Source of the DNA: a virus
Taxonomy: Duplodnaviria; Heunggongvirae; Uroviricota; Caudoviricetes
Virus record (IMG/VR): IMGVR_UViG_2896595138_000002
Span: 1-34,565 of that record
Strand: one strand, 5' to 3'
DNA: 34,565 bases
Within the stretch, counting starts at the first letter, position 1. Each line of letters begins with the position of its first letter. Made by a program: the position numbers and the translations under genes. The notes below the pieces were generated by a model. It worked only from the letters and a program-made list of their open reading frames with translations. It searched no databases and was not told the DNA's origin. Positions 1 to 34,565 of the stretch are shown in pieces.

Positions 1-377
1 TTAACTGTCCGGTCCCGGAGAGTGGAAATACCCTTTTTCGGTGATTGTCAGAGAGACAATCGCGATTTGCGGTTCACACATCGCTGCCAACACGGTTTCT
101 AAGCCATCTATCTGTACGTGCAAGGCTTTTTTAACGACGCCAACGACGCGAGCCGTCCACACATCGGCCGACATTTCCGCAACGGTATAAAGATTATCTT
201 GCTGTTGTAAATCGGCAATTTGCTGTTCGCCGCCGATTAAGTTGACCTCATAATATCCCCAGTCACTGAAATGTTCTGTAGCAAGAATATCGGCATACAC
301 GCCCTGATGCGCACGGTGAAATGCACCAAAGCCTAAATGAACAATTCTTGGATTAAGGTGGTACAGATCCCCATCAT
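1..377 (-). CDS. ydfI: Mannitol/mannonate dehydrogenase-family oxidoreductase (YdfI/UxuB-like), N-terminal part; 3' end lies beyond window start
   Basis: ORF 1..300 plus upstream frame reads [16 protein letters not shown] (Rossmann motif of long-chain mannitol dehydrogenases). ATG-ATG at 377..372 is out of frame with the motif because the G-run is 4 long (plus-strand C-run 369..372). Confidence 0.7.
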
Positions 378-578
378 GGTGATGGTAATAAAGAGCACTT
401 TTTTACGCCCTATTCTGTCGCCCATTTTGCCGAAAATAAATGCTCCGACAATACGCGCCACATAACCTGCACCATAGGTTCCCATTGCCAGAATTAACGC
501 CATTGCCGTTGATGATTCAGGAAAAAATATTTCATGAAACACTAACGCTGCGCCGAGCGAATATAACTGGAAATCCAT
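333..578 (-). pseudogene. ydfJ: MFS (metabolite:H+ symporter, ProP-like) transporter remnant; internal N-terminal-half fragment only
   Basis: 81-aa ORF with the FFP...GxxGDRxGRKKxL signature of the TM2-TM3 loop. A stop lies 2 codons upstream of the first Met and the fragment ends about 30 bp before ydfI, so about 300 C-terminal codons are missing. Confidence 0.6.
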
Positions 579-1362
579 AATTCACAGGTATTTTTTCCCA
601 TCCTGTGGTTTCCTTGGCGTTTTCTAGTTTTTTTCAGATAGTTGCATTTTTTAAAAAGCATCCTAAGTTCGATCTCAGTGTCTATCTGGGGCCTATTTCT
701 GTCCCATATATGCCCCAAAAAAACTCCCCAACAGATAAGTAGTTTTTTCATGGATTTATGCGTAAAATCGATAATAGCTGGAAATAATTCAATACATGCA
801 CTCTCGAAAGTGCATCAGCCAGCCGCAGCACGTTCCTGCATAAGGCGTGCCTGCGGTTTTTCAACTATTCAGATACATCACTCCCATCACATTCATTCCT
901 CCGCATCAAAGGCATATAGGCTATATCACCTTGATATTTTTCTTTTTCAGATAAAAACTCTTATCTATGTATACTTTTAAACCCAATCCGTGTAGAGTCT
1001 CTGCATAAGATAGTTTGCAGTTGCCGCTTCAGCTTGCGCCATAAACCGCCTGATTTTTGCTGCCACCTGTTAGCATTCCTGTATACCTGAAACGACAATG
1101 TTTATCTACGAACTTTAAGAATACCCAAGATAAAAATTGTCAACTATATCATATATAACACATTACTAATTCGAGGCTATATGAACAGCATACTGATAAT
1201 CACATCTCTCCTTATCATATTCAGCATTTTTAGTCATGCCCTAATAAAATTAGGGATTGGCATATCCAATAACCCAGACAAAACCGATGTATAAGTCAAC
1301 ATATCCTGAATCAGACATACAATATCGCAATGAAAATCAATAATATTTTAAGGAATATCTTC

Positions 1363-1502
1363 ATGAAATCAAAAGACACCCTAAAGTGGTTCCCTGCGCA
1401 GCTTCCTGAAGTAAGAATTATCCTAGGGGATGCTGTAGTGGAAGTAGCAAAACAGGGAAGACCTATCAATACCAGAACATTGCTTGATTACATTGAAGGA
1501 AA
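1363..1502 (+). pseudogene. Small prophage protein (YdfK/YnaE-like), 3'-truncated at a deletion junction with the J gene
   Basis: ORF 1330..1635 begins MKSKDTLKWFPAQLPEV (from the internal Met) and loses protein-like character near 1502, where minus-strand J homology begins. Identity is from memory only. Confidence 0.4.
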
Positions 1503-3246
1503 CCGTCATCGTTCTCACGGATACTCACACAGCGGAACAGGCGCTGGCGCAACGTCGGCAACTTCAGCCCCCATACGCTGTATCCGGCAACGCCGTCAGG
1601 AACACGGCTCACTTTTACCTTCACGCCGTCGGTGACGGACTGAACCTCCACGCTGACCGGATTGCCACTTCCGTCAACCAGGCTTATCAGCCTGGTGCCG
1701 GAGGATGGCAGCGTGATTTCACGGTCGAGCGTCAGCGTCCGGGTCTGGCTGTTTACCGCCAGCACGCGCCCGCCGATGCTGATACCGGCATAGTCATCAT
1801 CGCAGATTTCAATGACATCACCCGGTACATGGCGAAGCCCTTCTGCGCCCACGCTGAAGTCCACGGTCTGCGTTTCCAGCAGTTCCGTTTTAATCAGCCA
1901 CAGCCCGGCGCGGTGTGCCTGCCCCCGGCTGGTACAGCCAAAGGCATCCATCTTCGTGACATTACGACCGTAACGGGCAATGGCCTGCGTATCTTCAACA
2001 AGCTCTGTCGCCGTCTCCCAGCCGTTGTTCGGGTCAATCCAGTTCACCTCAACGGCATTATGGCGGTCCTTCAGGGCGCTGAAGCTGTAGCGGAACGGCG
2101 CGCCATCATCCGGCATCACCACATTACTGCGGTTATAGGTCCACACCTTATCTGATGGTCGGTCCTGCACGAACGTCAGCGTCTGCCCGTTCCATACCGG
2201 CATACAGCGCATCGCCGAGCAGAAATCACTGAGCACATCCCACGCCTTACGCTGCGTGGTCAGCCAGGCATTACAGGTGATGCGCGGCTCCGTGCCGCCA
2301 AAACCGTCCGGCACCGACTGGTCGCAGTACTGGCCGATGACATACAGCGCCCATTTATCCACATCTGCCGCACCAAGACGTTTCCCCATGCCGTAGCGTG
2401 GATGGGTCAGCATATCCCACAGACACCAGGCCATGTTATTGCTGTATGCTGGCTTAAACGTTCCGTCCCAGATACCGCTGTATTGCCGCGTCTGCGGGTT
2501 ATAGTTCGACGGCACCTGCAGAATACGCCCGCGCAGATGATAATTACGGCTCACCTGCTGGCTGCCGAACTGCTCCGAATCCACCTGTACGCCGACCAGT
2601 GCCGTGTTCGGGTAGCACTGTTTCACATCGATGATTTCGGTGTATGACGACCAGAGCGTTTTGTTCTGCAGCTGGTCTGTGGTGCTGTCCGGCGTCATCC
2701 TGCGCATCCGGATATTGAACGGGCGCGGCGGCAGGTTACCCACCACCACCGATGCCAGATACTGTGAGGTGGTTTTGCCTTTAATGGTGATGTCTTTTTC
2801 CGTCACCCAGCCACCGTTACGCTGTATCTGAACCAGCAGGCGGACTTCCGACGGACTCCTGTCCCCCTTTGAGGTGGTTTCCACCAGTGCCTGCACACCG
2901 AAGGTCAGGCGCAGACGGTCGATATTTGCAGACGTGATGGTCCGGGTGATCGGCGTGTCATATTTCACTTCCGTACCCAGCACCGTCTCGGAGCCGGAGG
3001 ATTCAAATCCCTCCAGCGGAGTCTGCTCCTGCTCACCTGCCCGGAACACCACCGTGACGCCGGAGATATTGGTATTCCCCTCACTGTCCAGCACCGGCGT
3101 ACTGTTCAGCAGCACACTTTTTAATCCGTCCACCGGACCTTCAACCGGCCCTTCACTGATGACGTCTATCACGCTCAGCATCTGGGATGATTTCAGGTTG
3201 TCCTTCGCTTCGCGCGGGTATGCCCATTACTGCTACCTTTACCCAT
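1503..3246 (-). pseudogene. J: Lambda J-like tail tip / host-specificity protein, N-terminal ~580 codons only, with a frameshift near codon 10
   Basis: 571-aa ORF matches lambda gpJ N-terminus (LSVIDxISEGPxEGPVDGLKSVLLNSTPVLD...RCVSIRENDDG). The MGKGSSNGH start at 3246 is out of frame (GGG at 3216..3218 appears one base short). Homology ends at about 1503. Confidence 0.85.
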
Positions 3247-3306
3247 TCCTCACGCTCCATAAACGACAAAACCGCCCGGAGGCGGTTTCACATAAAACAT
3301 TTTGCA

Positions 3307-3954
3307 TCAACGACCAATCACCACAACCTGACCACCATCCCCTTCATCTGCCGTGCTGATCTCCTGAGAAACCACGCGTGACCCCACGCGCATTTCACCG
3401 TACAGAACAGGCAGAACATTGCCCTGGGCAACCATGTTATCCAGTGAGGAGAAATAGGTGTTCTGTTTGCCGTTATCTGTACTTGCTGCCGTGGGCGTCC
3501 TGGCTTTCGGTGCCAGCATCTGCGCCACTCCGCCCAGGATCATACTGGCCCCTGCCGCATACATGCCCGATACAGCCGCGGCACCCAGCCAGCCCACAGG
3601 GTTCCACCATGCCACCGCAATCAGCGCCGCCCCCAGCACCACCTGAAGCACACCGCCGCTTTTAGCTCCCGCCAGACGCGGCACGATGTGGATCACGGCA
3701 CCATTTGCCAGCGGCTCATTAAGACGGGCAGACAATTCGGTTTCACCTGCATCACGCCCGGCAATCCGTACCTGATACCAGCCGTCACTCAGTTTCTGAC
3801 GAAATGCCGGGACCTGTGTGGACAGCGCCCGGATGGCTTCAGCCCCCGTTTTTACACGAAGGTCGATGCGGCGGCCAAATCGTTGTAAATCCCCGTAAAG
3901 GCAGATGCGTGCCATGCCCGGTGACGCCAGAGGGAGTGTGTGCGTCGCTGCCAT
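3307..3954 (-). CDS. I: Lambda I-like tail assembly protein
   Basis: 215-aa ORF MAATHTLPLASPGMARICLYGDLQRFGRRIDLRV...GGQVVVIGR, gpI-like. Confidence 0.85.
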   Translation of the reverse strand: MAATHTLPLASPGMARICLYGDLQRFGRRIDLRVKTGAEAIRALSTQVPAFRQKLSDGWYQVRIAGRDAGETELSARLNEPLANGAVIHIVPRLAGAKSGGVLQVVLGAALIAVAWWNPVGWLGAAAVSGMYAAGASMILGGVAQMLAPKARTPTAASTDNGKQNTYFSSLDNMVAQGNVLPVLYGEMRVGSRVVSQEISTADEGDGGQVVVIGR

Positions 3955-4594
3955 TTGTCGGTATACCTCTCTCGTTTGCTCAGTTGTTCAGGAATATGGT
4001 GCAGCAGCTCGCCATCACCACAGTAAATGGCGGCATGATTCGGCACCGATGAACCAAAGCAGCACAGCAGCACGTCGCCAGGCTGCGCCTCTGTCAGTGC
4101 GACACGGTAAAAACCAGTCGCCTCCATATTGTCAAGATAGAGATTCTGACCGTTACGCCACCAGTCATCCCCGCGATGAAAATCCGGCATCTCAATCCCC
4201 GCCAGATGATAAGCATCCCGGAACAGCGTGTAACAGTCCGTCACCCCGTGCTCAAAGCGCCGCCCGGTGAGATGCGGCACACAGCGGAACTTGTGAATCG
4301 CCCCCCGGCAGACCAGCCACCACGGCAAATCACTCTGCACCTGCAGCCGCCGGTCAGCCTCACTCAGCCAGGGCAGACCACAGGGATGACTGTGGACCAG
4401 TGCCACAATCTCACCCTGCATCTCTGCCTGCAGCCAGTCTTCCGGCGACATCCGGAAATAATCCTCCGGCTCACCGGAAATATTCACGCAGGGAAAATAT
4501 CTTTCCCCTCCGGCGTGCTTACCACGAAGCCGCACGACTCCGCTGGCGCACATCGCCGGGCGTGCGCCAGAATCGCTGATTCTGTCTGTGTCAT
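3852..4594 (-). pseudogene. K: Lambda K-like tail assembly protein (JAB/MPN + NlpC/P60), frameshifted near codon 29
   Basis: MTQTESAILAHARRCAPAESCGFVVSTPEG from ATG at 4594 continues as GERYFPCVNISGEPE...HSHP... in another frame (ORF 3852..4637). The shift sits at a homopolymer, plus-strand C-run 4505..4508. Confidence 0.75.
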
Positions 4595-4599
4595 GGGAT

Positions 4600-6747
4600 T
4601 TACTGCGAAAGTTTGTTAATGGAAAGGAAGCCGCCAAAGTTGCCGACGTTATTGCGGAACTTACAACCGCTCAGGCATTTGCTGCATTTATCCTTCGTGA
4701 TATCGGACGTTGGCTGGTCATATTCATCCGCGACCGCCGGACCATGATAACCGCACTCATCGCCGCGATAGGTCCAGGTGCAGGTGTTGGCCAGCATGAT
4801 ACGTCCCGGAAAAACAGCGCCGTCCGTTTCCGTCGGCGTGGACAGTACAAAAGAGGCACTCACCGCGCTCAGTTCGCTGCACTGCTCAATGCGCCAGCGG
4901 CTGATCACCTCCTGCTCCGGATCGGCGTCACTGTTTCCGTTGACGAAGTTCACCGCATCCAGAAAACGGGCGTAAACCTTACGCCGGACCACCGTTCCGC
5001 CGACCAGACTCTGCAGATCTTCCGCCATCCCGGTGACCATACCGTACAGGTTAGAAACCGTCAGCGTGGGGCGCGTACTGGTGCCCTTGTCGCCAAGTGC
5101 AGCCAGCTGGTGTTTGTACTCCAGCGTCTCATCTTTATGCGCCAGCAGGGATTTCTCCTGTGCAGACAGCTGGCGACGTTGCGCCGCCTCCTCCAGTACC
5201 GCGAACTGACTCTCCGCCTTCCACAAATCCCGGCGCTGCTGGCTGATTTTCTCATTTGCTCCGGCATGCTTCTCCAGCGTCCGGAGTTCAGCCTGAAGCG
5301 TCAGCAGGGCAGCATGAGCACTGTCTTCCTGACGATCGCCCGCAGACACCTTCACGTCGAACTGTTTCGGCTTTTTCAGCGTCGCTTCATAATCCTTTTT
5401 CGCCGCCGCCATCAGCGTGTTGTAATCTGCCTGCAGAATTTTCCCGTCCTTCAGTGCCTTGTTCAGTTCTTCCTGACGGGCGGTATATTTCTCCAGCGGC
5501 GTCTGCAGGCGTTCATAAGCCTTCTGCGCCTCTTCGGTATATTTCAGCCGTGATGCCTCAGACTCGGCCCAGTCCTTTGCTGCCATCTCTCTGGCCTTTT
5601 CAAGATCGGCCTGCAACGTGCCGGCTGAAAGCCCAAGTTGCGCATTCGCTCTGTCCTCCCATGCTCCCCGGAGATTGGCAAGAAATGCGGATGTTTTACC
5701 GCGCCGGTGGCTCCGGCTCTGATACCACTGCCATTTTTTGTCCGCCTCATCAAAAGCCTTTTCTGCTTTCTCCAGCATTTCCCGGGCAGTGTCCGGGCGA
5801 CCAATATCCAGCACCGAATCCCACATGGATTTGAATGCCCGCGCTGTCCTGTCTGCCCAGGTCTCCAGCGTGCCCATGTTCTCTTTCAGGCGGCGGGTCA
5901 GGTCATCAAACCCTTTCGTTGCGGCCTCGTTCGCCGCCTGCAATGCCCCGGCTTCATCTCCGGAACGCTGCAACTGAGCAACATACGCAATCTGCTCCGC
6001 CGTCACGTTATGGAACTGACGTGCCATCGCTGTCAGTCCCGACGTCGGGTCTGTGGTCAGCTTCCCGAAGGCTTCAGCGACCTTGTCCACCTCCACGCCG
6101 GATGCAGAGGAGAAACGCGCCACACTCTGGCTGATCGCCTCAAACTGCTCACCACCACGCACACCTGCATTCACCAGCGCCGTCAGTGACTCGCTGGTCT
6201 GGTTAAACGTCAGCCCTGCCGCCTGCCCGGCTCTGGACAGGACCAGCATACGATCTGCCGTCAGTCCTGCCTGATTACCGGAAAGGACCAGCGTTTTATT
6301 GAAACTGGACAGGGTTGAGTCCCCCTGATACCAGGCATACGCCAGCGCACCGATCGCCACCGCCAGCGAGGTGGCCCCGACCATCGGCAGGGTGATCGCA
6401 CCGGCAAGCCCCCTGAACATGGGGATCATCCCGCCGAAGGAGTCCTTAACCTGACCACCCTGTTGCAGCAGGATCAGCCACGGACTTTGCCCGCCTGCAA
6501 GCTGCGTGGCCACGTCGGTGAACTGCGCAGGCAGCATACGCATGGCGGCTTTATACTGCCCGACGGAAATCCCCGCTTTCTGTGCAGCCAGCGCCTGTCG
6601 GCTCAGCGACTGTTCAACGACTGCCGCTGTTTTTTTCGCATCACTTTCCGTACCGGAAAAATGACGCCTGACTCTGGCCATCTGCTCGTCAAATCTGGCC
6701 GCATCCAGACTCAAATCAACGACCAGATCGCCTACCGGTTCAGCCAT
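4600..6747 (-). pseudogene. In-frame fusion of lambda H-like tape measure (N-terminal ~560 aa) to the C-terminal ~160 aa of lambda L-like tail protein
   Basis: 715-aa ORF: MAEPVGDLVVDLSLDAARFDEQMARVRRHF... (gpH) switches at ...LAALGDK|GTSTRPTLTVSNLYGMVTGMAED... to gpL C-terminus ending FGGFLSINKLSQ. H C-terminus, all of M and L N-terminus are absent. Confidence 0.8.
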
Positions 6748-8754: not shown

Positions 8755-9302
8755 CTACAGCGCATAGTCCAGCGCTTTCGGAAGACGTTCACGCCGTATC
8801 CGCTCAATATTCTGTTTAAACGCCGTGGTCAGCGGCACCGCCATCGGGATTTTCACCACATCAATGGGGTAACGGTTTTTCCCGGCCACACGCTGCATGA
8901 CATGCCACCGGCCATTTTTCAGTTGCTGAATAAACGCGCCGGGAATACGACGGTTTCCCACCACAAGCACGCTGCCGCCACCTTTCAGGGCTGAACGCTG
9001 CCCCTTTTTACGACGCCTGCGTCGGGACAGGACAATCCGCGCGTTAACCAGCCTGATTACGGGCAAATCCCCCGGTTAACTTTGATTCTGGCCTGCGGAT
9101 TTTTTACCGTGGCCCTTTTCAGCCTGGCCCTTTCCTTTACCAGTTTCCGGCGTACCTTTGTCTCACGGGCAACCTGTGACGCCGACTGCGATATCGCGGA
9201 TGAAGCAACGCGGTTAATGGCCATTGCGGCGGCACCAGGCACCGCCGTTTTGCTGATACGGCTGAGGTTTTCAACGGCCTGCTCAAGACCTTTTATGGCC
9301 AT
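8755..9302 (-). pseudogene. Z: Lambda Z-like tail completion protein, split by a frameshift
   Basis: ORF 9057..9302 (MAIKGLEQAVENLSRISK...KVNRGICP*) and ORF 8755..9066 (PVIRLVNARIVLSRRRRRKKGQRS...) are the two halves of gpZ. The shift is in the G-run at plus-strand C5 9069..9073. Confidence 0.8.
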
Positions 9303-12856: not shown

Positions 12857-14121
12857 TCTTCTCCTCCTCTGTTGATTGTCGCAGTCCGGATTCAAATGCC
12901 GCAGCCGCCCAGGCGGGCGGTTTAAGACCGGCTGCACGGCGCTCCATCGTTTCACGGACCTGCTGGGCAAAAATTTCCTGATAGTCGTCACCGCGTTTTG
13001 CGCACTCTTTCTCGTAGGTACTCAGTCCGGCTTCTATCAGCATCACCGCTTCCTGTACTTCTTTCAGACCATCGATGGCCATACGACCGGAGCCTATCCA
13101 GTCACAGTTCCCCCAGGCGCTGCGGGCTTCCTGAAAGCTGAAACGCGCTTTTGAAGGTAACGTCACCACGCGGCGAACGATGGCCTCTTCCAGCCAGCAC
13201 AGAAACATCTGGCTCGCCTGACGGGATGCGACGAATTTTCGCCGCCCCATAAAGTACGCCCACGACTCGTTCGCACTGGCCCGTGCCGTGGAGTAGCTCA
13301 TCTGGGCGTAATTCCGGGAAAGCTGCTCATACGAGACACCCAGCCCGGCAGCGATATACCGCAACAGTGACTGCTCAAACACGGAGTAGCCGTTATCCGT
13401 GTCCTGAGCCGTCTGCAGGTTCAGTGAGTCCCCCGGCATCAGGTGCGGCACTTTTGCGCCTCCCAGACGGACCGGTGCTGCGGCGTAATACGCGGCAATT
13501 TCACCAATCCAGCCGGTCAGCTTGTCCCGCTGCTCCTTACTGTTCGCGCCCAGAATAAAATCCATCGCTGACTGCGTATCCAGCTCACTCTCAATGGTGG
13601 CGACATACATCGCCTTCACAATGGCGCTCTGCAGCTGCGTGTTCTGCAGTGTGTCGAGCATCTTCATCTGCTCCATCACGCTGTAAAACACATTTGCACC
13701 GCGGGTCTGCCCGTCCTCCACGGGTTCAAAAACGTGAATGAACGAGGCGCGCCCGCCGGGTAACTCACGGGGTATCCATGTCCATTTCTGCGGCATCCAG
13801 CCAGGATAGCCGTCCTCGCTGACGTAATATCCCAACGCCGCACCGCTGTCATTAATCTGCACACCGGCACGGCAGTTCCGGCTGTCGCCGGTATTGTTCG
13901 GGTTGCTGATGCGCTTCGGGCTGACCATCCGGAACTGTGTCCGGAACAGTCGCGAGGGACTGGTATCCCAGGTGGCCTGAACGAACAGTTCACCGTTAAA
14001 GGCGTGCATGGCCACACCTTCCCGAATCATCATGGTAAACGTGCGTTTCCGCTCAACGTCAATGCAGCAGCAGTCATCCTCGGCAAACTCTTTCCATGCC
14101 GCTTCAACCTCGCGGGAAAAA
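12837..14121 (-). pseudogene. B: Lambda B-like portal protein, 5'-truncated (about 105 N-terminal codons missing) by IS insertion
   Basis: ORF 12837..14165: gpB homology runs from ...FSREVEAAWKEFAEDDCCCIDVERKRTFTMMIREGVAMHAFNGELF... to ...EEEKSDSRAA; the first ~14 codons of the ORF are IS600-derived. Confidence 0.85.
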
Positions 14122-14941
14122 TTTCGCACGTATAAACATCTTTGATGCCAGCGAGGTACAACCATCCCTCCTGTGTGGCAACATACGTCAGGTCCGCCAC
14201 CCAGACCTGATTTGGTGCTGTAGGAGCGAACGTCTGGTTCAGCAGATTTGGCGCAACTGGCAGATTGTGGTTCGGGTTCGTAGTCGCTCTGAACTTGCGT
14301 TTCTGCTTACAGCGTAGCCTTAGCTCCTTACGAAGACGTGCCAGTCGGTCACGACCAACGATGATGCCATTCTCTGCCAGCTCCGTCTGGAGCCGCCGGG
14401 TTCCATATGTTTCGCGAGTGCGGATATGTGCCACCTTAATCTCCAGTTTTAGCCGCTCATCACTTTGTTTTCTGTCTGAGGGTTCATGCTGTACCCAGTT
14501 GTAATAACCGCTCCTGGATACACCAAATACCTGACACATCGCTTCAATGGGAAATTGTTGTCGCCATTGTTCGATTAACGCGTATTTTTCAGCGACTCCT
14601 GTGCAAAATACGCTGTTGCTTTTTTTAATATATCTCGCTCAAGGCGAGCTTCATTTAACGCCTTACGCAGTTGCAGAATTTCAGATTCCAGTTCAGCCAC
14701 CGTGCGGGAACCAGGAGTACCGAGCCCTTTTCTGGCGGCGGTAACCCATTGTCCTAAAGTGCCTTCAGGAAGGGATAATCGGGAAGCGCCTTCACTGATC
14801 GAAAGTTGATTTTCAAGAACCGTTCTGACAGCTTCGGCTTTGAACTCTTTAGAGTAACGTTGGGTTTTTCTGCTCATTATTAGCTCCTTCTGATGCCATT
14901 CTATTTCAGGAAGGAGTGTCCGTTAAACTCAGGCTACCTCA
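14122..14941 (-). mobile_element. IS600 (IS3 family), partial copy 1: left end + orfA + about 140 codons of orfB
   Basis: Left-end sequence TGAGGTAGCCTGAGTTTAACGGACACTCC (RC at 14919..14941); orfA at 14575..14877; identity to the other copies stops at 14122 where portal sequence begins. Confidence 0.85.
14575..14877 (-). CDS. IS600 OrfA (helix-turn-helix transposase subunit)
   Basis: 100-aa ORF MSRKTQRYSKEFKAEAVRTVLENQLSISEGASRLSLPEG...KKATAYFAQESLKNTR; A7 run at plus 14620..14626. Confidence 0.9.
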   Translation of the reverse strand: MSRKTQRYSKEFKAEAVRTVLENQLSISEGASRLSLPEGTLGQWVTAARKGLGTPGSRTVAELESEILQLRKALNEARLERDILKKATAYFAQESLKNTR

Positions 14942-15872
14942 GACTTTTGCTGGCCCGAAGACCAAATCCGAAGCGCCCGTTCTTTTCATCACGAAAGTTT
15001 TGCTCTATCTGCATTCGCCGACTGTATAACTTGATGATTTCTCGCGCTCTGAAGTCATTTGTACTGCTGAAGATCAACCAGGCTTCTTTTGCTGATTTGC
15101 TCTGTTCTTTGTCTGTTTTGTTTAAACCACTCTGACCTTTCGAACGTTTCTTTTTTCGCCCTTTTGCCGATTTCTTATAGGTGTAAAAATGCCCCCGGAT
15201 GCTTTTTTTCCTTTCTTTAACCAGCCTTCCAGCCCCCATATATTCCGGTGTTTTACATTCAGGGCTATCCGACACTTTTAACCATCTTTCAGGCGCGTTA
15301 TCGAGGCAATACTGAACGTTATTTCTGATCCGACCAATAAAATCCCAGCCCAGAGAAGTAATATGGTGAAACCATGCGCTCTGAAATCCAGCATCCGTGA
15401 CAATAATAACCCTGGCATCGGGGGGCAGGGATTGAGCAAGGGAATCAAGGAAATCATGTTGTATCAATGGATTATTTTGTTTTTCAGAAGGAACAACCTT
15501 ACTCAATAACGGAATGGAACGCCCGTCACACAGAAGGCTGGCACGAAGAACATGATGCTCCTGGGAGGGATAGCCACTCCAGTCTACGGCTATTACACAT
15601 AAAGATAACTGCCGTGTCAGCATTGAAGTGATATTCCTGAAAATCATTGGAATATCGCGATGGAGCGCCTCATTACCCATGAGGCGATCAATACGTTTGA
15701 TCTTATTCTTAACTTGTGCATTACCCGGCAAAAAACGTCCGATACTGGTCAGCGTCAGAGATGCTCCGTTGATTAACGCCACTGTGGCATCCATCAGGGC
15801 ATTTTGTCGGTACTGATGAAATGGTGCTAAGGCATCCCGGAAGAAATTCTGACATACTTTATGAACAGGCAT
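14942..15872 (-). pseudogene. IS10-like DDE transposase, C-terminal ~80 aa missing
   Basis: Homology ends at the IS600 junction, about 14941. Confidence 0.7.
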
Positions 15873-18084: not shown

Positions 18085-18110
<26 letters not shown>

Positions 18111-18630
18111 TCAGCAACCCCGGTATCAGTTCATCCAGCGCGGCTGCTTTGTTCATGGCTTTGATGATATCCCGTTTCAGGAAATCAACATGTCGGTTTT
18201 CCAGTTCCGGAAAACGCCGCTGCACCGACAGGGGGATCCCGTCGAGAATACTGGCAATTTCACCTGCGATCCGCGACAGCACGAAAGTACAGAATGCGGT
18301 TTCCACCACTTCAGCGGAGTCTCTGGCATTTTTCAGCTCCTGTGCGTCGGCCTGCGCACGCGTAAGTCGATGGCGTTCGTACTCAATAGTCCCTGGCTGG
18401 AGATCTGTCTCGCTGGCCCGCCGCAGTTCTTCAACCTCCCGGCGCAGCTTTTCGTTCTCAATTTCAGCATCCCTTTCGGCATACCATTTTATAACGGCGG
18501 CAGAGTCATAAAGCACCTCATTACCCTTGCCACCGCCTCGCAGAACGGGCATTCCCTGTTCCTGCCAGTTCTGAATGGTACGGATACTCGCACCGAAAAT
18601 GTCAGCCAGCTGCTTTTTATTGACTTCCAT
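18085..18630 (-). CDS. nu1: Lambda Nu1-like terminase small subunit
   Basis: 181-aa ORF MEVNKKQLADIFGASIRTIQNWQEQGMPVLRGGGKGNEVLYDSAAV... Confidence 0.9.
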
Positions 18631-18807
18631 TGTTCATTCCACGGACAAAAACAGAGAAAGGAAACGACAGAGGCCAAAAAGCTCGCTTTCAGCACCTGTC
18701 GTTTCCTTTCTTTTCAGAGGGTATTTTAAATAAAAACATTAAGTTATGACGAAGAAGAACGGAAACGCCTTAAACCGGAAAATTTTCATAAATAGCGAAA
18801 ACCCGCG

Positions 18808-18819
18808 AGGTCGCCGCCC
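18808..18819 (-). other. cos: cosN cohesive-end site, lambda type (GGGCGGCGACCT on minus strand), with cosB toward Nu1 and a cosQ-like region to the right
   Basis: Plus strand ...aaatagcgaaaacccgcgaggtcgccgcccgtaacctgtcggatcgccgg... is the reverse complement of the lambda left end joined to the lambda right end (recalled from memory). Confidence 0.85.
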
Positions 18820-19017
18820 GTAACCTGTCGGATCGCCGGAAAGGACCCGCAAAATGATAATAATTATCATCTACATGTCACAACGTGCATCTACGCCATC
18901 AAACCACGTCAAATAATCAATTATGACGCAGGTATCGTATTAATTGATCTGCATCAACTTAACGTAAAAAAAACTTCAGACAATACAAATCAGCAACACA
19001 GAATACGGGACAACCTC

Positions 19018-19212
19018 ATGTCAACGAAGAACAGAACCCGCAGAACAACAACCCGCAACATCCGCTTTCCTAACCAAATGATTGAACAAATTAACATCGC
19101 TCTTGATCAAAAAGGGTCCGGGAATTTCTCAGCCTGGGTCATTGAAGCCTGCCGTCGGAGACTAACGTCAGAAAAGAGAGCATATACATCAATCCAGAGT
19201 GATGATGGATGA
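19018..19212 (+). CDS. Small basic protein, hypothetical (resembles an ORF at the lambda right end)
   Basis: 64-aa ORF MSTKNRTRRTTTRNIRFPNQMIEQINIALDQKGSGNFSAW..., located just beyond cos. Confidence 0.5.
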   Translation: MSTKNRTRRTTTRNIRFPNQMIEQINIALDQKGSGNFSAWVIEACRRRLTSEKRAYTSIQSDDG

Positions 19213-25097: not shown

Positions 25098-25433
25098 ATG
25101 AAGTGGATTGTGATTGATACAGTTATCCAGCCATCATGCGGAATATCTTTTTCAGTCATATGGAGTAAAATAAAATTAATAATCTGGTATCAATCGGATG
25201 CTTTCTTACCTCCTGAAAGTATATTTACACTGACTCACACAGGCATCATGCTCAATAACAAAGTGCTACCTGTAACCATTTACAACGTAGTACCATTCAA
25301 TAAAACATTCTGGAATTTAATCAAAAACAGCCAGGAATGCCCTACAAATACAGATAACGTATTGAATGAATGCTTTAATAACCGTTGCACTCTGCAAATA
25401 TGTCCTTATGGACTAAAACAACAAAGTCCATAA
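25098..25433 (+). CDS. Hypothetical Cys-rich 111-aa protein in an AT-rich island
   Basis: AGGA SD 6 nt before ATG; six Cys including [26 protein letters not shown]; no recognisable family. Confidence 0.35.
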
Positions 25434-26087: not shown

Positions 26088-26741
26088 TCAGCGTTCCCAG
26101 AAGCTTTCCATCGGAGCGTTGTCGTAACAGTTACCTTTACGCGACATTGATGTTTTCAGACCAAACTGCTCCTGTATGACCCGGTAATCGTATGCGCAGT
26201 ACTGTGAACCTCGATCAGAGTGGTGGATTAGCCCGGCAGGTGGGCGCTGGCTCCTGAGCGCCATAAACAGGGCTTTACCTGTCAGCTCTTTTGTCATGCG
26301 CTCTCCCATGGCGTAGCCGACAATTTCGCACGTATAAACATCTTTGATGCCAGCGAGGTACAACCATCCCTCCTGTGTGGCAACATACGTCAGGTCCGCC
26401 ACCCAGACCTGATTTGGTGCTGTAGGAGCGAACGTCTGGTTCAGCAGATTTGGCGCAACTGGCAGATTGTGGTTCGGGTTCGTAGTCGCTCTGAACTTGC
26501 GTTTCTGCTTACAGCGTAGCCTTAGCTCCTTACGAAGACGTGCCAGTCGGTCACGACCAACGATGATGCCATTCTCTGCCAGCTCCGTCTGGAGCCGCCG
26601 GGTTCCATATGTTTCGCGAGTGCGGATATGTGCCACCTTAATCTCCAGTTTTAGCCGCTCATCACTTTGTTTTCTGTCTGAGGGTTCATGCTGTACCCAG
26701 TTGTAATAACCGCTCCTGGATACACCAAATACCTGACACAT
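26088..26741 (-). CDS. IS600 OrfB (DDE integrase domain), 3' end frameshifted
   Basis: ORF ends ...ESFWER*, other copies read ...ESFWGTLKNESLSHYRF...; C-run 26089..26091 is 3 long. Confidence 0.8.
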   Translation of the reverse strand: MCQVFGVSRSGYYNWVQHEPSDRKQSDERLKLEIKVAHIRTRETYGTRRLQTELAENGIIVGRDRLARLRKELRLRCKQKRKFRATTNPNHNLPVAPNLLNQTFAPTAPNQVWVADLTYVATQEGWLYLAGIKDVYTCEIVGYAMGERMTKELTGKALFMALRSQRPPAGLIHHSDRGSQYCAYDYRVIQEQFGLKTSMSRKGNCYDNAPMESFWER

Positions 26742-26776
26742 CGCTTCAATGGGAAATTGTTGTCGCCATTGTTCGA

Positions 26777-27079
26777 TTAACGCGTATTTTTCAGCGACTC
26801 CTGTGCAAAATACGCTGTTGCTTTTTTTAATATATCTCGCTCAAGGCGAGCTTCATTTAACGCCTTACGCAGTTGCAGAATTTCAGATTCCAGTTCAGCC
26901 ACCGTGCGGGAACCAGGAGTACCGAGCCCTTTTCTGGCGGCGGTAACCCATTGTCCTAAAGTGCCTTCAGGAAGGGATAATCGGGAAGCGCCTTCACTGA
27001 TCGAAAGTTGATTTTCAGGAACCGTTCTGACAGCTTCGGCTTTGAACTCTTTAGAGTAACGTTGGGTTTTTCTGCTCAT
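26777..27079 (-). CDS. IS600 OrfA
   Basis: 100-aa ORF identical in pattern to copy 1 except L20P (RTVPENQ). Confidence 0.9.
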   Translation of the reverse strand: MSRKTQRYSKEFKAEAVRTVPENQLSISEGASRLSLPEGTLGQWVTAARKGLGTPGSRTVAELESEILQLRKALNEARLERDILKKATAYFAQESLKNTR

Positions 27080-27258
27080 TATTAGCTCCTTCTGATGCCA
27101 TTCTATTTCAGGAAGGAGTGTCCGTTAAACTCAGGCTACCTCAACAGGATGGACTTAGCAATGGCTGCTCCTGGCACAAAGCGGACAGTGATCACCGTTC
27201 TTACGACTACTTTCTGACTTCCTTCGTGACTTGCCCTAAGCATGTTGTAGTGCGATAC

Positions 27259-27282
27259 TTGTAATGACATTTGTAATTACAA
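27259..27282 (+). promoter_or_regulatory. relBE operator-like inverted repeats (TTGTAAT-N-ATTACAA) in the relB promoter region
   Basis: cTTGTAATgacatTTGTAATTACAAg 13 bp upstream of the relB start. Confidence 0.65.
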
Positions 27283-27294
27283 GAGGTGTAAGAC

Positions 27295-27534
27295 ATGGGT
27301 AGCATTAACCTGCGTATTGACGATGAACTTAAAGCGCGTTCTTACGCCGCGCTTGAAAAAATGGGTGTAACTCCTTCTGAAGCGCTTCGTCTCATGCTCG
27401 AGTATATCGCTGACAATGAACGCTTGCCGTTCAAACAGACACTCCTGAGTGATGAAGATGCTGAACTTGTGGAGATAGTGAAAGAACGGCTTCGTAATCC
27501 TAAGCCAGTACGTGTGACGCTGGATGAACTCTGA
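27295..27534 (+). CDS. relB: RelB antitoxin
   Basis: 79-aa ORF MGSINLRIDDELKARSYAALEKMGVTPSEALRLMLEYIADNERLPFKQTLLSDEDAELVEIVKERLRNPKPVRVTLDEL. Confidence 0.95.
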   Translation: MGSINLRIDDELKARSYAALEKMGVTPSEALRLMLEYIADNERLPFKQTLLSDEDAELVEIVKERLRNPKPVRVTLDEL

Positions 27535-27821
27535 TGGCGTATTTTCTGGATTTTGACGAGCGGGCACTAAAGGAATGGCGAAAGCTGGGCTCGACGGTAC
27601 GTGAACAGTTGAAAAAGAAGCTGGTTGAAGTACTTGAGTCACCCCGGATTGAAGCAAACAAGCTCCGTGGTATGCCTGATTGTTACAAGATTAAGCTCCG
27701 GTCTTCAGGCTATCGCCTTGTATACCAGGTTATAGACGAGAAAGTTGTCGTTTTCGTGATTTCTGTTGGGAAAAGAGAACGCTCGGAAGTATATAGCGAG
27801 GCGGTCAAACGCATTCTCTGA
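27534..27821 (+). CDS. relE: RelE mRNA interferase toxin
   Basis: 95-aa ORF MAYFLDFDERALKEWRKLGSTVREQLKKKLVEVLESPRIEANKLRGMPDCYKIKLRSSGYRLVYQVIDEKVVVFVISVGKRER...; ATGA overlap with relB. Confidence 0.95.
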   Translation: MAYFLDFDERALKEWRKLGSTVREQLKKKLVEVLESPRIEANKLRGMPDCYKIKLRSSGYRLVYQVIDEKVVVFVISVGKRERSEVYSEAVKRIL

Positions 27822-27892
27822 ACCAAAGCATGACATCTCTGTTTCGCACCGAAGGTGACACTTCTGCTTTGCGTTGACAGGAGAAGCAGGCT

Positions 27893-28048
27893 ATGAAGCA
27901 GCAAAAGGCGATGTTAATCGCCCTGATCGTCATCTGTTTAACCGTCATAGTGACGGCACTGGTAACGAGGAAAGACCTCTGCGAGGTACGAATCCGAACC
28001 GGCCAGACGGAGGTCGCTGTCTTCACAGCTTACGAACCTGAGGAGTAA
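27893..28048 (+). CDS. hokD: Hok-family type I toxin (HokD/RelF-like), 51 aa
   Basis: MKQQKAMLIALIVICLTVIVTALVTRKDLCEVRIRTGQTEVAVFTAYEPEE, translated directly from the sequence (below the ORF-track size cutoff). Confidence 0.85.
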   Translation: MKQQKAMLIALIVICLTVIVTALVTRKDLCEVRIRTGQTEVAVFTAYEPEE

Positions 28049-28116
28049 GAGACCCGGCGAGTGAGAAATCCCTCGCCACCTCTGATGTGGCAGGCATCCT
28101 CAACGCACCCGCACTT

Positions 28117-28147
28117 AACCCGCTTCGGCGGGTTTTTGTTTTTATTT
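28117..28147 (+). terminator. Rho-independent terminator after hokD
   Basis: AACCCGCttcgGCGGGTTTTTGTTTTTATTTT. Confidence 0.75.
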
Positions 28148-28265
28148 TCAACGCATTTGAAATTCTGGATGGTGCCGGAATAGAATCAAAAATACTTAAG
28201 TAGCGCGCAGGGATAAGAGGGATGGACCCCGAACAGGGGAGTGCTATTTATCTGGAAGGATTCTG

Positions 28266-28517
28266 ATGATGAACATCGAAGAACTGCGTAAAATTTTTTG
28301 TGAAGATGGCCTCTATGCTGTGTGCGTTGAAAATGGAAATATTGTTAGTCATTACCGCATTGTGTGTTTGCAAAAAAATGGGGCTGCGTTAATTAATTTT
28401 GTGGATGCCCGAGTGACGGACGGATTTATCTTGCGCGACGGTGAGTTTGTCACTTCATTACAGGCATTGAAAGAGATCGGAATAAAAGCTGGCTTTTCTG
28501 CTTTTTCAGAAGAATAA
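28266..28517 (+). CDS. rem: Small prophage protein of unknown function (Rem-like position and size)
   Basis: 83-aa ORF immediately downstream of relBE-hokD, as for rem in Qin; identity by position and length only. Confidence 0.5.
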   Translation: MMNIEELRKIFCEDGLYAVCVENGNIVSHYRIVCLQKNGAALINFVDARVTDGFILRDGEFVTSLQALKEIGIKAGFSAFSEE

Positions 28518-28582
28518 ACTCATCTACAATCTTGCGCGGGCTGAACTCCCGCTGAGTAACACCGTGCCACCGGAGAAAACCG

Positions 28583-28861
28583 ATGGCACGCAACGCAAAA
28601 TATTACAATCATGATAATTCGACCGTTCTTGCCCACACGCACGAGCGGTATTCTCACGCATTTAAGTCAGACTGGTACCAGCATCCCTCATGCACTGAAG
28701 AACAGGCCGAATGGCTCATTCAGTGTTACCGCAGGCGCGGATGCGAGGTTAAAAAAGCCCTTAGCCTCGACTACCGTCACTGGATAATCTCCGTCAGGCT
28801 CCCTTACTCCGAACAGCCACCGCGTCCGTCCCGCACATTCCAGCAACGGATCTGGAGGTAA
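28583..28861 (+). CDS. Hypothetical 92-aa protein, stop/start-coupled to the following gene
   Basis: ORF ends TAA 1 nt before the GTG start of the next gene; Cys/His-containing. Confidence 0.4.
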   Translation: MARNAKYYNHDNSTVLAHTHERYSHAFKSDWYQHPSCTEEQAEWLIQCYRRRGCEVKKALSLDYRHWIISVRLPYSEQPPRPSRTFQQRIWR

Positions 28862-28862
28862 C

Positions 28863-29912
28863 GTGCGGGTATTACTTCGACCTGTTCTGGTTCCGGAACT
28901 CGGGCTGGTGGTCCTTAAGCCCGGTCGTGAATCCATGCCGGTATTCCACAATACCCGGTTACTGGTGGAGCCGGAACCGAAAAGCATGCGTAATCTGCCG
29001 TCCGGGGTCGTTCCTGCCGCTCGCCAGCCGCTGGTGGAAGACAAAACATTGCTGCCGTTTTTCAGTAACGCACGGGTGATTCGTGCTGCTGGTGGTGCTG
29101 GTGCATTGTCTGACTGGCTGTTGCGCCATATTAAATCCTGCCAGTGGCCACACGGCGATTATCATCACAGCGAAACCGTCATTCACCGTTATGGTACCGG
29201 CGCAATGGTGTTGTGCTGGCACTGCGACAACCAGCTGCGTGACCAGACATCCGAATCACTCGAGCAACTTGCTCATCAAAACCTGTCAGCATGGATGATT
29301 GACGTCATCGGTCACGCAATAAGCGGTACGCAGGAGCGTGAACTATCTCTGGCTGAATTATCCTGGTGGGCGGTCCGCAATCAGGTGGCGGACGCGCTAC
29401 CGGAAGCGGTATTACGTCGTTCGCTGGGGTTGCGTGCGGAAAAAATCCGCTCAATGTTCCGTGAAAGCGACATCGTACCGGGAGAGCAGACCGCCACCAG
29501 CATACTGAAACAGCGCACAAAAAATCTTGCGCCGCTGCCTCACGCCCACCAGCAACAGAACCCACCACAGGAAAAGACGGTGGTCAGCATTGCCGTTGAT
29601 CCTGAGTCTCCGGAATCTTTCATGAAACGACCTAAACGTCGCCGCTGGGTTAACGAGAAATACAAACGCTGGGTGAAGACACAGCCGTGTGCGTGTTGTG
29701 GTAAGCCAGCCGACGATCCCCATCACCTGATTGGTCATGGTCAGGGCGGAATGGGGACAAAATCTCACGATATTTTCACGCTACCGCTGTGTCGGGAGCA
29801 TCACAACGAGCTTCATGCGGATCCTCTGGCGTTCGAAGAAAAGCATGGTTCTCAGGTTGATTTAATTTTTCGTTTTCTTGATCACGCCTTTGCAACTGGC
29901 GTGCTTGGGTAA
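28863..29912 (+). CDS. ydfU: DUF968-like protein with C-terminal HNH-type Cys/His motif (YdfU-like)
   Basis: 349-aa ORF; ...QPCACCGKPADDPHHLIGHGQGGMGTKSHDIFTLPLCREHHNELH...; sits between rem and rusA/Q. Confidence 0.6.
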   Translation: MRVLLRPVLVPELGLVVLKPGRESMPVFHNTRLLVEPEPKSMRNLPSGVVPAARQPLVEDKTLLPFFSNARVIRAAGGAGALSDWLLRHIKSCQWPHGDYHHSETVIHRYGTGAMVLCWHCDNQLRDQTSESLEQLAHQNLSAWMIDVIGHAISGTQERELSLAELSWWAVRNQVADALPEAVLRRSLGLRAEKIRSMFRESDIVPGEQTATSILKQRTKNLAPLPHAHQQQNPPQEKTVVSIAVDPESPESFMKRPKRRRWVNEKYKRWVKTQPCACCGKPADDPHHLIGHGQGGMGTKSHDIFTLPLCREHHNELHADPLAFEEKHGSQVDLIFRFLDHAFATGVLG

Positions 29913-31985: not shown

Positions 31986-33250
31986 TGAGGTAGCCTGAGT
32001 TTAACGGACACTCCTTCCTGAAATAGAATGGCATCAGAAGGAGCTAATAATGAGCAGAAAAACCCAACGTTACTCTAAAGAGTTCAAAGCCGAAGCTGTC
32101 AGAACGGTTCCTGAAAATCAACTTTCGATCAGTGAAGGCGCTTCCCGATTATCCCTTCCTGAAGGCACTTTAGGACAATGGGTTACCGCCGCCAGAAAAG
32201 GGCTCGGTACTCCTGGTTCCCGCACGGTGGCTGAACTGGAATCTGAAATTCTGCAACTGCGTAAGGCGTTAAATGAAGCTCGCTTTGAGCGAGATATATT
32301 AAAAAAAAGCAACAGCGTATTTTGCACAGGAGTCGCTGAAAAATACGCGTTAATCGAACAATGGCGACAACAATTTCCCATTGAAGCGATGTGTCAGGTA
32401 TTTGGTGTATCCAGGAGCGGTTATTACAACCGGGTACAGCATGAACCCTCAGACAGAAAACAAAGTGATGAGCGGCTAAAACTGGAGATTAAGGTGGCAC
32501 ATATCCGCACTCGCGAAACATATGGAACCCGGCGGCTCCAGACGGAGCTGGCAGAGAATGGCATCATCGTTGGTCGTGACCGACTGGCACGTCTTCGTAA
32601 GGAGCTAAGGCTACGCTGTAAGCAGAAACGCAAGTTCAGAGCGACTACGAACCCGAACCACAATCTGCCAGTTGCGCCAAATCTGCTGAACCAGACGTTC
32701 GCTCCTACAGCACCAAATCAGGTCTGGGTGGCGGACCTGACGTATGTTGCCACACAGGAGGGATGGTTGTACCTCGCTGGCATCAAAGATGTTTATACGT
32801 GCGAAATTGTCGGCTACGCCATGGGAGAGCGCATGACAAAAGAGCTGACAGGTAAAGCCCTGTTTATGGCGCTCAGGAGCCAGCGCCCACCTGCCGGGCT
32901 AATCCACCACTCTGATCGAGGTTCACAGTACTGCGCATACGATTACCGGGTCATACAGGAGCAGTTTGGTCTGAAAACATTAATGTCGCGTAAAGGTAAC
33001 TGTTACGACAACGCTCCGATGGAAAGCTTCTGGGGAACGCTGAAAAATGAGAGCCTGAGCCACTATCGTTTTAATAACCGGGATGAAGCCATCTCAGTAA
33101 TACGGGAATACATTGAGATTTTCTACAATCGTCAGCGTCGTCACTCTCGTCTGGGGAATATCTCCCCGGCAGCCTTCAGGGAAAAATATCATCAGATGGC
33201 TGCTTAAAAAAAGAACAAATGGTAGTGTCCGCTATTGCCAGTACACCTCA
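31986..33250 (+). mobile_element. IS600 copy 4, complete, no target-site duplication
   Basis: Both termini present; flanks AGA / TCA differ; 1265 bp. Confidence 0.9.
32050..33207 (+). CDS. IS600 fused OrfAB transposase (385 aa)
   Basis: A8 run at 32301..32308, as in copy 2. Confidence 0.85.
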   Translation: MSRKTQRYSKEFKAEAVRTVPENQLSISEGASRLSLPEGTLGQWVTAARKGLGTPGSRTVAELESEILQLRKALNEARFERDILKKSNSVFCTGVAEKYALIEQWRQQFPIEAMCQVFGVSRSGYYNRVQHEPSDRKQSDERLKLEIKVAHIRTRETYGTRRLQTELAENGIIVGRDRLARLRKELRLRCKQKRKFRATTNPNHNLPVAPNLLNQTFAPTAPNQVWVADLTYVATQEGWLYLAGIKDVYTCEIVGYAMGERMTKELTGKALFMALRSQRPPAGLIHHSDRGSQYCAYDYRVIQEQFGLKTLMSRKGNCYDNAPMESFWGTLKNESLSHYRFNNRDEAISVIREYIEIFYNRQRRHSRLGNISPAAFREKYHQMAA

Positions 33251-33531
33251 TCATGCTGTACAGTATCTGGTTTTTGTCGTTCTCCCCCAGTTCAAACCAG
33301 GTCACCACACCTTTCACCCGCCGCTGTACGTCATCGCCCTGCCATACCGTCAGGTATGGCCATTTTGTCCAGCACCTGCGCAAATTCAAGGGAAAGAAAC
33401 TGCTGACTGACCAGAGAAAGGTCGAGGGAAAAAAGTGAAGAGAGTGACTGGGTGAGATGAAAGGAAACCACCGCAAAAGCATCCGGTGGCAGGCCGTCCA
33501 CTTCCAGTGTGAAACGTAATCCGGTTGACAT
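33251..33531 (-). pseudogene. vgrG: VgrG (type VI secretion spike) N-terminal fragment, frameshifted and truncated by IS600
   Basis: MSTGLRFTLEVDGLPPDAFAVVSFHLTQSLSSLFSLDLSLVSQQFLSLEFAQVLDKMA then YLTVWQGDDVQRRVKGVVTWFELGENDKNQILYSM in the other frame; GGAGG SD before ATG at 33531; homology stops at the IS600 boundary. Confidence 0.7.
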
Positions 33532-34565
33532 AGCAACCTCCGTGAAAATGAATAATAATCCGCACATATTGCATGTACAACATGTCGGGCGGATGAGATA
33601 AGCGAGTCGACATCTGGCGTTACCGGGGAATATCAGAAAAATGTCATGGTTATGTGATGATTTAGTCTGGGATTTTACTTCAGAGAAACGGGTGTCTGTT
33701 TAGTCAACAAAATAATCACAAACGCAACGGATGGGTTCTCGACGTTATTCACGACAGGCTCGTACATTACAGCGAGTAATAAAAAACCTGATATGCAAAG
33801 TCAAACCAATATTCATAATGTCTTTTTATTCACAACAATAAATAATTCAATAACAATCATTGAAATGAATGATGGTTTGTATAAGGAATATACGCTACCG
33901 CCCCACTCTGATAACATGATCTGCACATTGCCATCTTAACGTCGTTAAACACTGGCTTAATAGTGGATATTTCAAATTAGGAATTTATTAAATTCACCTG
34001 ATGAATATAATAAGCAAATAGCATAGAAAATAATGACAACTCCCTCCGAGAGGACCATTTCCAAAGCACTGCACCACCACCTGGTGCCCGGATGATCTTG
34101 CTTCAGTGGTAAGAGTACCTGATTCATTGTTCCCAAAATGGTGTTTTCCCCTGCCCCTCCAATAATGTGTAGCTCTCACTTGATAATCTATTGATTAGGT
34201 TATATTAAGAATCAATATTTAAAATACATCCATTTCCTTGAATAAATCAACATGTTTATTTATCAATTGCTGTTTTAGCTCTGACTCATCAAGCTCTCCA
34301 TATTTGTACTACAGATAATCGCGAATAAATACAGAGAACGCCATTTATCCTTTTAGCATACCTGCCGGATATTTTTATTTGTATTAATATTAATTGCATC
34401 TCCAAGTCCGAGCATATCCATCATTAAAAACATTTTGAGATTATAGAATACCTGTGATAACAAGAGAAACATCTGCACAATGTGAATAGTTAGTTTCTTT
34501 TCAGAGGAAATGAAATAGACAAGCTGAATGAAAGGGAGAGTGATATAAATTAAAAAACATAACAT

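Follow-up and report, generated by a model that had tools for sequence, protein, structure and literature searches.

The Qin prophage of Escherichia coli K-12 is integrated in ydfJ, and an 11-bp direct repeat, GAAATCCATAA, coincides with both of its annotated ends. Qin keeps the full ydfK, pinQ, tfaQ and part of stfQ. Its stfQ adjoins nohA, no head or tail genes being found between them, and its intQ adjoins ynfP/rspB. The temperate phages mEp460_ev081, HannyBb, Tritos and PhiR42_1 are functional relatives of the element studied here. In mEp460_ev081, the gene order is J-lom-stf-tfa-pin-ydfK-ynfT-attP-int-xis. J is the lambda-type tail-tip/host-specificity gene, and the C-terminal portion of lambda J includes the receptor-binding end.

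The window, that is the whole 34,565-nt stretch of DNA analysed here, is 100% identical from base 1 to base 13,181 to CP026845.1 (GCA_002950375.1), a finished 4.93-Mb chromosome. Its first kilobases very probably come from a lambdoid prophage of the Qin/mEp460 type, integrated in ydfJ and now decayed, and represent the end with the tail genes, from which about 7.1 kb was lost by one illegitimate recombination. As in K-12 Qin, integration is in ydfJ at the same 11-bp core, and ynfT and ydfK have the same orientation, with 97.7% identity over 352..1503. Unlike K-12 Qin, the element has lost the region from the 3′ part of ydfK through the 3′ part of J, and between its J fragment and a nohA-homologous region (18102..19180) lies a lambda-like head/tail block, itself damaged. 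The four phages contain the whole of 579..1503 at 96-97.5% identity and a J at about 95%. Whereas these phages are complete, the window lacks 7.0-7.1 kb and has a host/phage hybrid att site, not attP.

To locate the host/phage junction, five sequences were aligned around att: the window, mEp460_ev081 attP, the attB of an uninterrupted ydfJ (WP3-S18-ESBL-08), and the left and right junctions of K-12 Qin. The 11-bp core GAAATCCATAA is found at 570..580 on the plus strand, inside ydfJ, on the side of the tail genes. The window is identical to attB left of the core and to attP right of it, the K-12 right junction being the reciprocal. In genomes with an uninterrupted ydfJ, the match with the window stops at base 584. 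The ATG with which the truncated ydfJ frame starts (576..578) lies within the core, and the phage-arm module ynfT-ydfK is adjacent to att. On this alignment, the true prophage boundary is an intact hybrid att site at 570..580, 923 bp to the left of the deletion. The first-pass annotation had equated the deletion with the left boundary of the prophage, a view that does not hold, as 581..1503 is still phage DNA. The same annotation had expected an att junction with ydfJ within 579..1330. This was nearly right, but the core overlaps only the first two bases of that interval. The core is present as a single copy in the window; 51 of 100 shuffled sequences also had one, so that a lone 11-mer is not significant by itself. 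A core shared with the other prophage end had also been envisaged. With at most one mismatch allowed, no second copy was found in the 34,565-nt window, and words of at least 11 nt common to 500..1330 and the rest of the window were of chance length only (at most 13 nt). The importance of these observations is mainly for annotation, the prophage boundary being fixed at 570..580.

On the host side of the core, a remnant of ydfJ occupies 353..578 on the minus strand. It corresponds to the first ~76 codons of the Qin-truncated frame (MDFQLYSLG...) and matches positions 6060..6286 of the K-12 sequence L003, at the 5′ end of ydfJ (b1543). The gene called at this place gave weak matches with Pfam MFS_1/Sugar_tr. 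It is followed, at 1..352 on the minus strand, by an internal fragment of ydfI, of the mannitol-dehydrogenase family, 99.2% identical to L003 4500..4852, inside ydfI (3454..4914). This fragment is without the first ~21 codons, including the start codon, and Pfam Mannitol_dh matched the called fragments. A three-way alignment showed a second clean deletion junction at 352..353, where the K-12 homology jumps from L003 4852 to 6060. Measured on K-12, 1,208 bp are missing, and the two sides share one A. The ydfJ remnant, which ends at about codon 76, runs here into ydfI at about codon 21 in a different reading frame, and the greater part of ydfJ is gone together with the start of ydfI. The gene ydfI is further split, with three called fragments to the left of the window.

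On the phage side of the core, window 567..1503 corresponds to mEp460_ev081 L007 10989..11927 with 97.4% identity, and the identity with HannyBb is 96.6%. The interval 579..1330 had been described as AT-rich and non-coding. The first part of this description is correct (37.5% GC, as compared to 50.6% for the whole window) but the second is not, since the interval contains ynfT. The AT-rich phage arm next to att extends over 581..1180 (38.2% GC), and no conserved gene was recognised in it. The arm might hold integrase or IHF binding sites. Short ATAGTTG-type repeats, without statistical support, are seen around attP, and one may speculate that they are integrase arm sites. Promoter and terminator scans did not exceed shuffled expectation, and an Rfam scan of 1..3500 returned two sub-threshold chance matches (CssrB, 19.4 versus 76 bits; mir-263, 18.7 versus 51.3 bits). 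The gene ynfT, at 1181..1294 on the plus strand, is an intact 37-codon ORF of the YnaM/YnfT small-protein family (NCBIfam NF041477; 63.9 bits for a cutoff of 35, E = 1.2e-17). Its product is identical to the 37-aa sequence listed for ynaM and for the copy in the ydfJ/ydfK interval of K-12 (PMC6001520). YnaM was among the small proteins identified by VanOrsdel et al. 2018, and was positive too in an independent ribosome-profiling screen (PMC6001520). The name ynfT is the one given by annotation in about 2,000 E. coli genomes.

The deletion junction between ydfK and J was then examined at the base level using a four-way alignment. K-12 ydfK reads ...GAAGGAAAC|ATAAAG, intact antisense J reads ...ACGTGC|CGTCGTCG, and the window reads ...GAAGGAAACCGTCATCG. 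The joint is at 1502..1504: ydfK, up to ...GAAGGAAAC, is joined onto J, from CCGTCATCG..., and the single C at 1503 is common to both sides. Neither inserted bases or filler nor an IS end or terminal repeat is seen at 1503. The K-12 homology, which starts at 352 and comprises the 5′ end of ydfJ, the Qin left end, ynfT and ydfK, ends exactly at 1503. Minus-strand J homology begins exactly at 1503 in all of the E. coli and lambda-type phage comparators (1502 in one phage). The first-pass annotation had proposed that a ydfK-like plus-strand ORF was fused at about 1502/1503 to minus-strand J, at J codon ~580. Both points are borne out, as the homologies to the K-12 Qin left end and to J meet at 1503 and the break corresponds to residue 582 of J. 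The ydfK-to-mid-J deletion junction is real and sited where it had been placed.

On the left of the junction, 1363..1503 on the plus strand encodes codons 1-47 of the 77-codon cold-shock gene ydfK, identical to K-12 YdfK at 47 of 47 residues. The other 30 codons are missing. Instead of a full-length 77-residue protein of the YdfK/YnaE type, residues 1-47 are followed by 43 residues unrelated to YdfK. The sequence is thus a gene remnant and not a YdfK member in the functional sense. Translation across the joint gives a chimeric 90-codon ORF (1363..1635, plus strand) made of YdfK residues 1-47 and 43 codons of antisense J, whose product is probably that of a pseudogene. This ORF has no NCBIfam family match, and chimeric products of 90 and 101 aa have no record in the protein collection searched. 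It keeps the native ydfK upstream region together with the first 47 codons. There is only a slim chance that it is a cold-shock-induced new protein of 90 residues, or that it drives antisense transcription into the J′-I-K remnant; if so, the deletion scar would have gained a regulatory or neo-functional role in the lineage. Here, ydfK and J are pseudogene remnants and should not be called as genes.

On the right of the junction, codons 1-582 of J are found at 1503..3246 on the minus strand (58.2% GC), with about 97% identity to E. coli J genes. From the ATG of this J, at 3246..3244, 581.7 codons lead to the break; on the intact J of strain DCE7 (1137 aa), the break falls at residue 582. Translation comparison showed that the distal 555 codons, present in intact relatives, are missing. 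Pfam FNIII-A_GpJ and Phage-tail_3 match the N-terminal part of the remnant. Alignment of the 5′ region revealed a 1-bp deletion near 3217, at J codon 10/11. A TipJ protein would have an uninterrupted frame of ~1130 codons and a C-terminal receptor-binding region, whereas the frame is here shifted at codon 10/11 and broken at 582. J is therefore inactivated at its 5′ end by the frameshift and cut short at its 3′ end. The 571-aa ORF in the remnant occurs in one contig only. The N-terminal 582 codons are collinear with J of lambda-type phages (95.5% DNA identity with Lambda_ev203), but the C-terminal 555 codons are absent and the frameshift at codon 10/11 is a further difference.

The phages mEp460_ev081 and HannyBb were used to evaluate what had been lost. 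In both, the two flanks are collinear with the window, orientation is preserved, and homology breaks at 1503 on both sides; window 1503..5064 corresponds to mEp460_ev081 L007 19074..22637. With neither flank turned around, the arrangement can be explained by a simple deletion alone and does not call for an inversion. The gap between the flanks is 7,147 bp on mEp460_ev081 and 6,988 bp on HannyBb, the content and size of the deletion being deduced from related phages whose stf regions vary in length. According to the mEp460 annotation, the gap contains the ydfK 3′ end, the serine recombinase gene pin, tfa, a 3-kb stf, lom and the distal part of J. The missing ~7-kb block was not found elsewhere in the window. 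Distal J, tail fibres, att and int/xis had all been listed as absent in the first-pass annotation. Distal J and the tail-fibre genes are indeed gone, but the att junction on this side is intact, and int/xis belong to the other end of the prophage. Since int-xis lie beyond attP in the phage, they are at the opposite prophage end after integration and were not removed by the ydfK/J deletion. No homology to K-12 intQ, ynfP or rspB, nor to mEp460 int/xis, was detected in the window. Likewise, an opposite end with int/xis and a second att junction, next to ynfP (the ydfJ 5′ fragment) and rspB, was not observed within the window.

These data lead us to favor the following scenario. A Qin/mEp460-type prophage would have integrated in ydfJ, giving, from left to right, the ydfJ remnant, the hybrid att site, the AT-rich arm, ynfT and ydfK. 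One illegitimate recombination would have removed ~7.1 kb, from ydfK codon 47 to J codon 582, with loss of the ydfK 3′ end, the pin invertase gene, tfa, stf, lom and the distal half of J, which binds the receptor. The joint at the single shared C is directly seen in the sequence, and it required no IS, site-specific recombinase or substantial homology. Because none of these elements is needed, we infer that the deletion most likely arose by replication slippage or by end-joining after a double-strand break, though a 1-nt overlap cannot specify the mechanism. Several successive deletions could also have occurred in place of one. As a consequence, neither a functional tail tip nor side fibres can be made by the prophage, YdfK is cut to the chimeric 90-codon ORF, and the element is one more immobilised cryptic prophage. 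The event is ordinary prophage decay in an Escherichia/Shigella chromosome, of a kind already known.

Other origins of the junction were considered. Four IS600 copies or fragments make the window rich in IS sequences, and other rearrangements in the prophage are IS600-bounded, which would fit an adjacent deletion made by an IS, IS600 or another, that is no longer present. However, the IS stays at the joint after a deletion of this type, whereas no IS end is seen at the junction: the ydfK and J homologies meet at 1503 without an intervening base, IS sequence or terminal repeat. Moreover, the nearest IS600 material is at ~14,120, about 12.6 kb away. We consider this origin very unlikely.

Even less credit can be given to the idea that the Pin invertase recombined two direct quasi-crossover sites and thereby excised a segment including its own gene. 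It is true that pin lies inside the deleted interval according to the mEp460 annotation, and that the junction has a GGAAACC sequence resembling a half-site end. Din-family invertases can act on quasi-sites, as documented for P1 Cin. Nevertheless, comparison with a Din-type 26-bp consensus, a weak test, gave agreement at 9 of the 18 specified positions, and neighbouring non-junction positions scored equally. In addition, the parental sites have one base in common at the crossover, in place of the identical central 2-bp core that Din-family enzymes need, and no convincing crossover-site inverted repeat was found in mEp460.

An assembly artefact joining two lambdoid prophages of the genome is just as improbable. 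Genomes of E. coli/Shigella carry the ydfK/ynaE modules and J in multiple copies, so that window 1..3400 can match a single genome at as many as 16 places, and the junction was found in one assembly only. Misassembly, however, arises in shared repeats and not at a 1-nt overlap of unrelated sequences. CP026845.1 is a finished chromosome, and a simple deletion would bring together just these two flanks in just this orientation. Assembly error is excluded by argument only, a misassembly at a non-repeat joint being implausible. Finally, the possibility already raised in the first-pass annotation that ydfK was wrongly assigned and that J ends at a natural gene boundary can be practically dismissed: the minus-strand ORF does reach a stop at 1466, but this stop belongs to antisense ydfK sequence, 12 codons beyond the homology break, intact J in relatives reads ...RENDDGTYAITAVQ... 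for 555 codons more, and the upstream ORF is identical to K-12 YdfK at all 47 residues.

The source chromosome, CP026845.1, was the sole place where the exact junction was found. A 251-bp query straddling it gave no match covering at least 80% of its length among 5,426 complete E. coli genomes, a junction 35-mer was absent from species-representative genomes, and a junction 24-mer was absent from metagenome contigs. Nor did any of the 5,426 complete RefSeq E. coli genomes match the window contiguously. This absence, together with the numerous IS600 copies and pseudogenes, suggests a Shigella-type genome. The ydfJ′-att-ynfT-ydfK arrangement is present in about 2,000 of the 5,426 genomes, and none has the ydfK′::J′ junction. 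Being unique, the junction could be used as a marker of the clade to which the strain belongs.

Other strains show other losses at this end. In O55:H7 DEC5A (L006 3004..7202), a truncated J abuts a more deeply truncated ydfJ, and ynfT, ydfK and the att junction are lost. In CFSAN061772 (L001 6812..8672), pinQ and tfaQ are kept, and tfaQ is next to a C-terminally truncated J whose break is ~35 or more bases further along than that of the window. These deletions are independent and differ in their breakpoints, but the kind of decay is the same, with loss of genes on the tail-fibre side, and the ydfJ prophage end is repeatedly eroded. The window adds one more independent breakpoint at a locus where K-12, O55:H7 and others each lost different parts.

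Further decay is visible in the same prophage: besides the J frameshift, the window has an ORF fusing H to L, a split Z, the IS600 copies and many broken genes. At 4600..6747 (minus strand), one 715-aa ORF matches both Pfam TMP_2 (tape measure) and Phage_tail_L, which indicates a putative in-frame internal deletion fusing H to L with removal of M. At ~8755..9302 (minus strand), two called ORFs of 81 and 71 aa, each matching PF06763, take the place of a single minor tail gene Z, implying a probable frameshift or stop.

The four IS600 copies or fragments are located at ~14120..14942, 21084..~22340, 26284..27143 and 31986..~33240. The copy tested was 99% identical to annotated IS600, and two copies hold a continuous 385-codon ORF for an IS3-family transposase. 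The ydfU-rem-hokD-relE-relB block (27144..29912) is inverted with respect to K-12 Qin, with 92.7% identity. Its position between oppositely oriented IS600 copies suggests an IS600-mediated inversion. The last 1.3 kb of the window (33241..34565), directly behind an IS600, is chromosomal yncH/vgrG DNA, 98.3% identical to that of many E. coli. The right end of the window is therefore not the dicB-int end of the prophage, and the int-side end appears to have been separated from this block by rearrangement. Inside the prophage region, an ORF at 25098..25433 (plus strand), with lysis-gene homologues on one side and an IS600 on the other, matches the model of the anti-adapter IraM with 162 bits, for a cutoff of 121.
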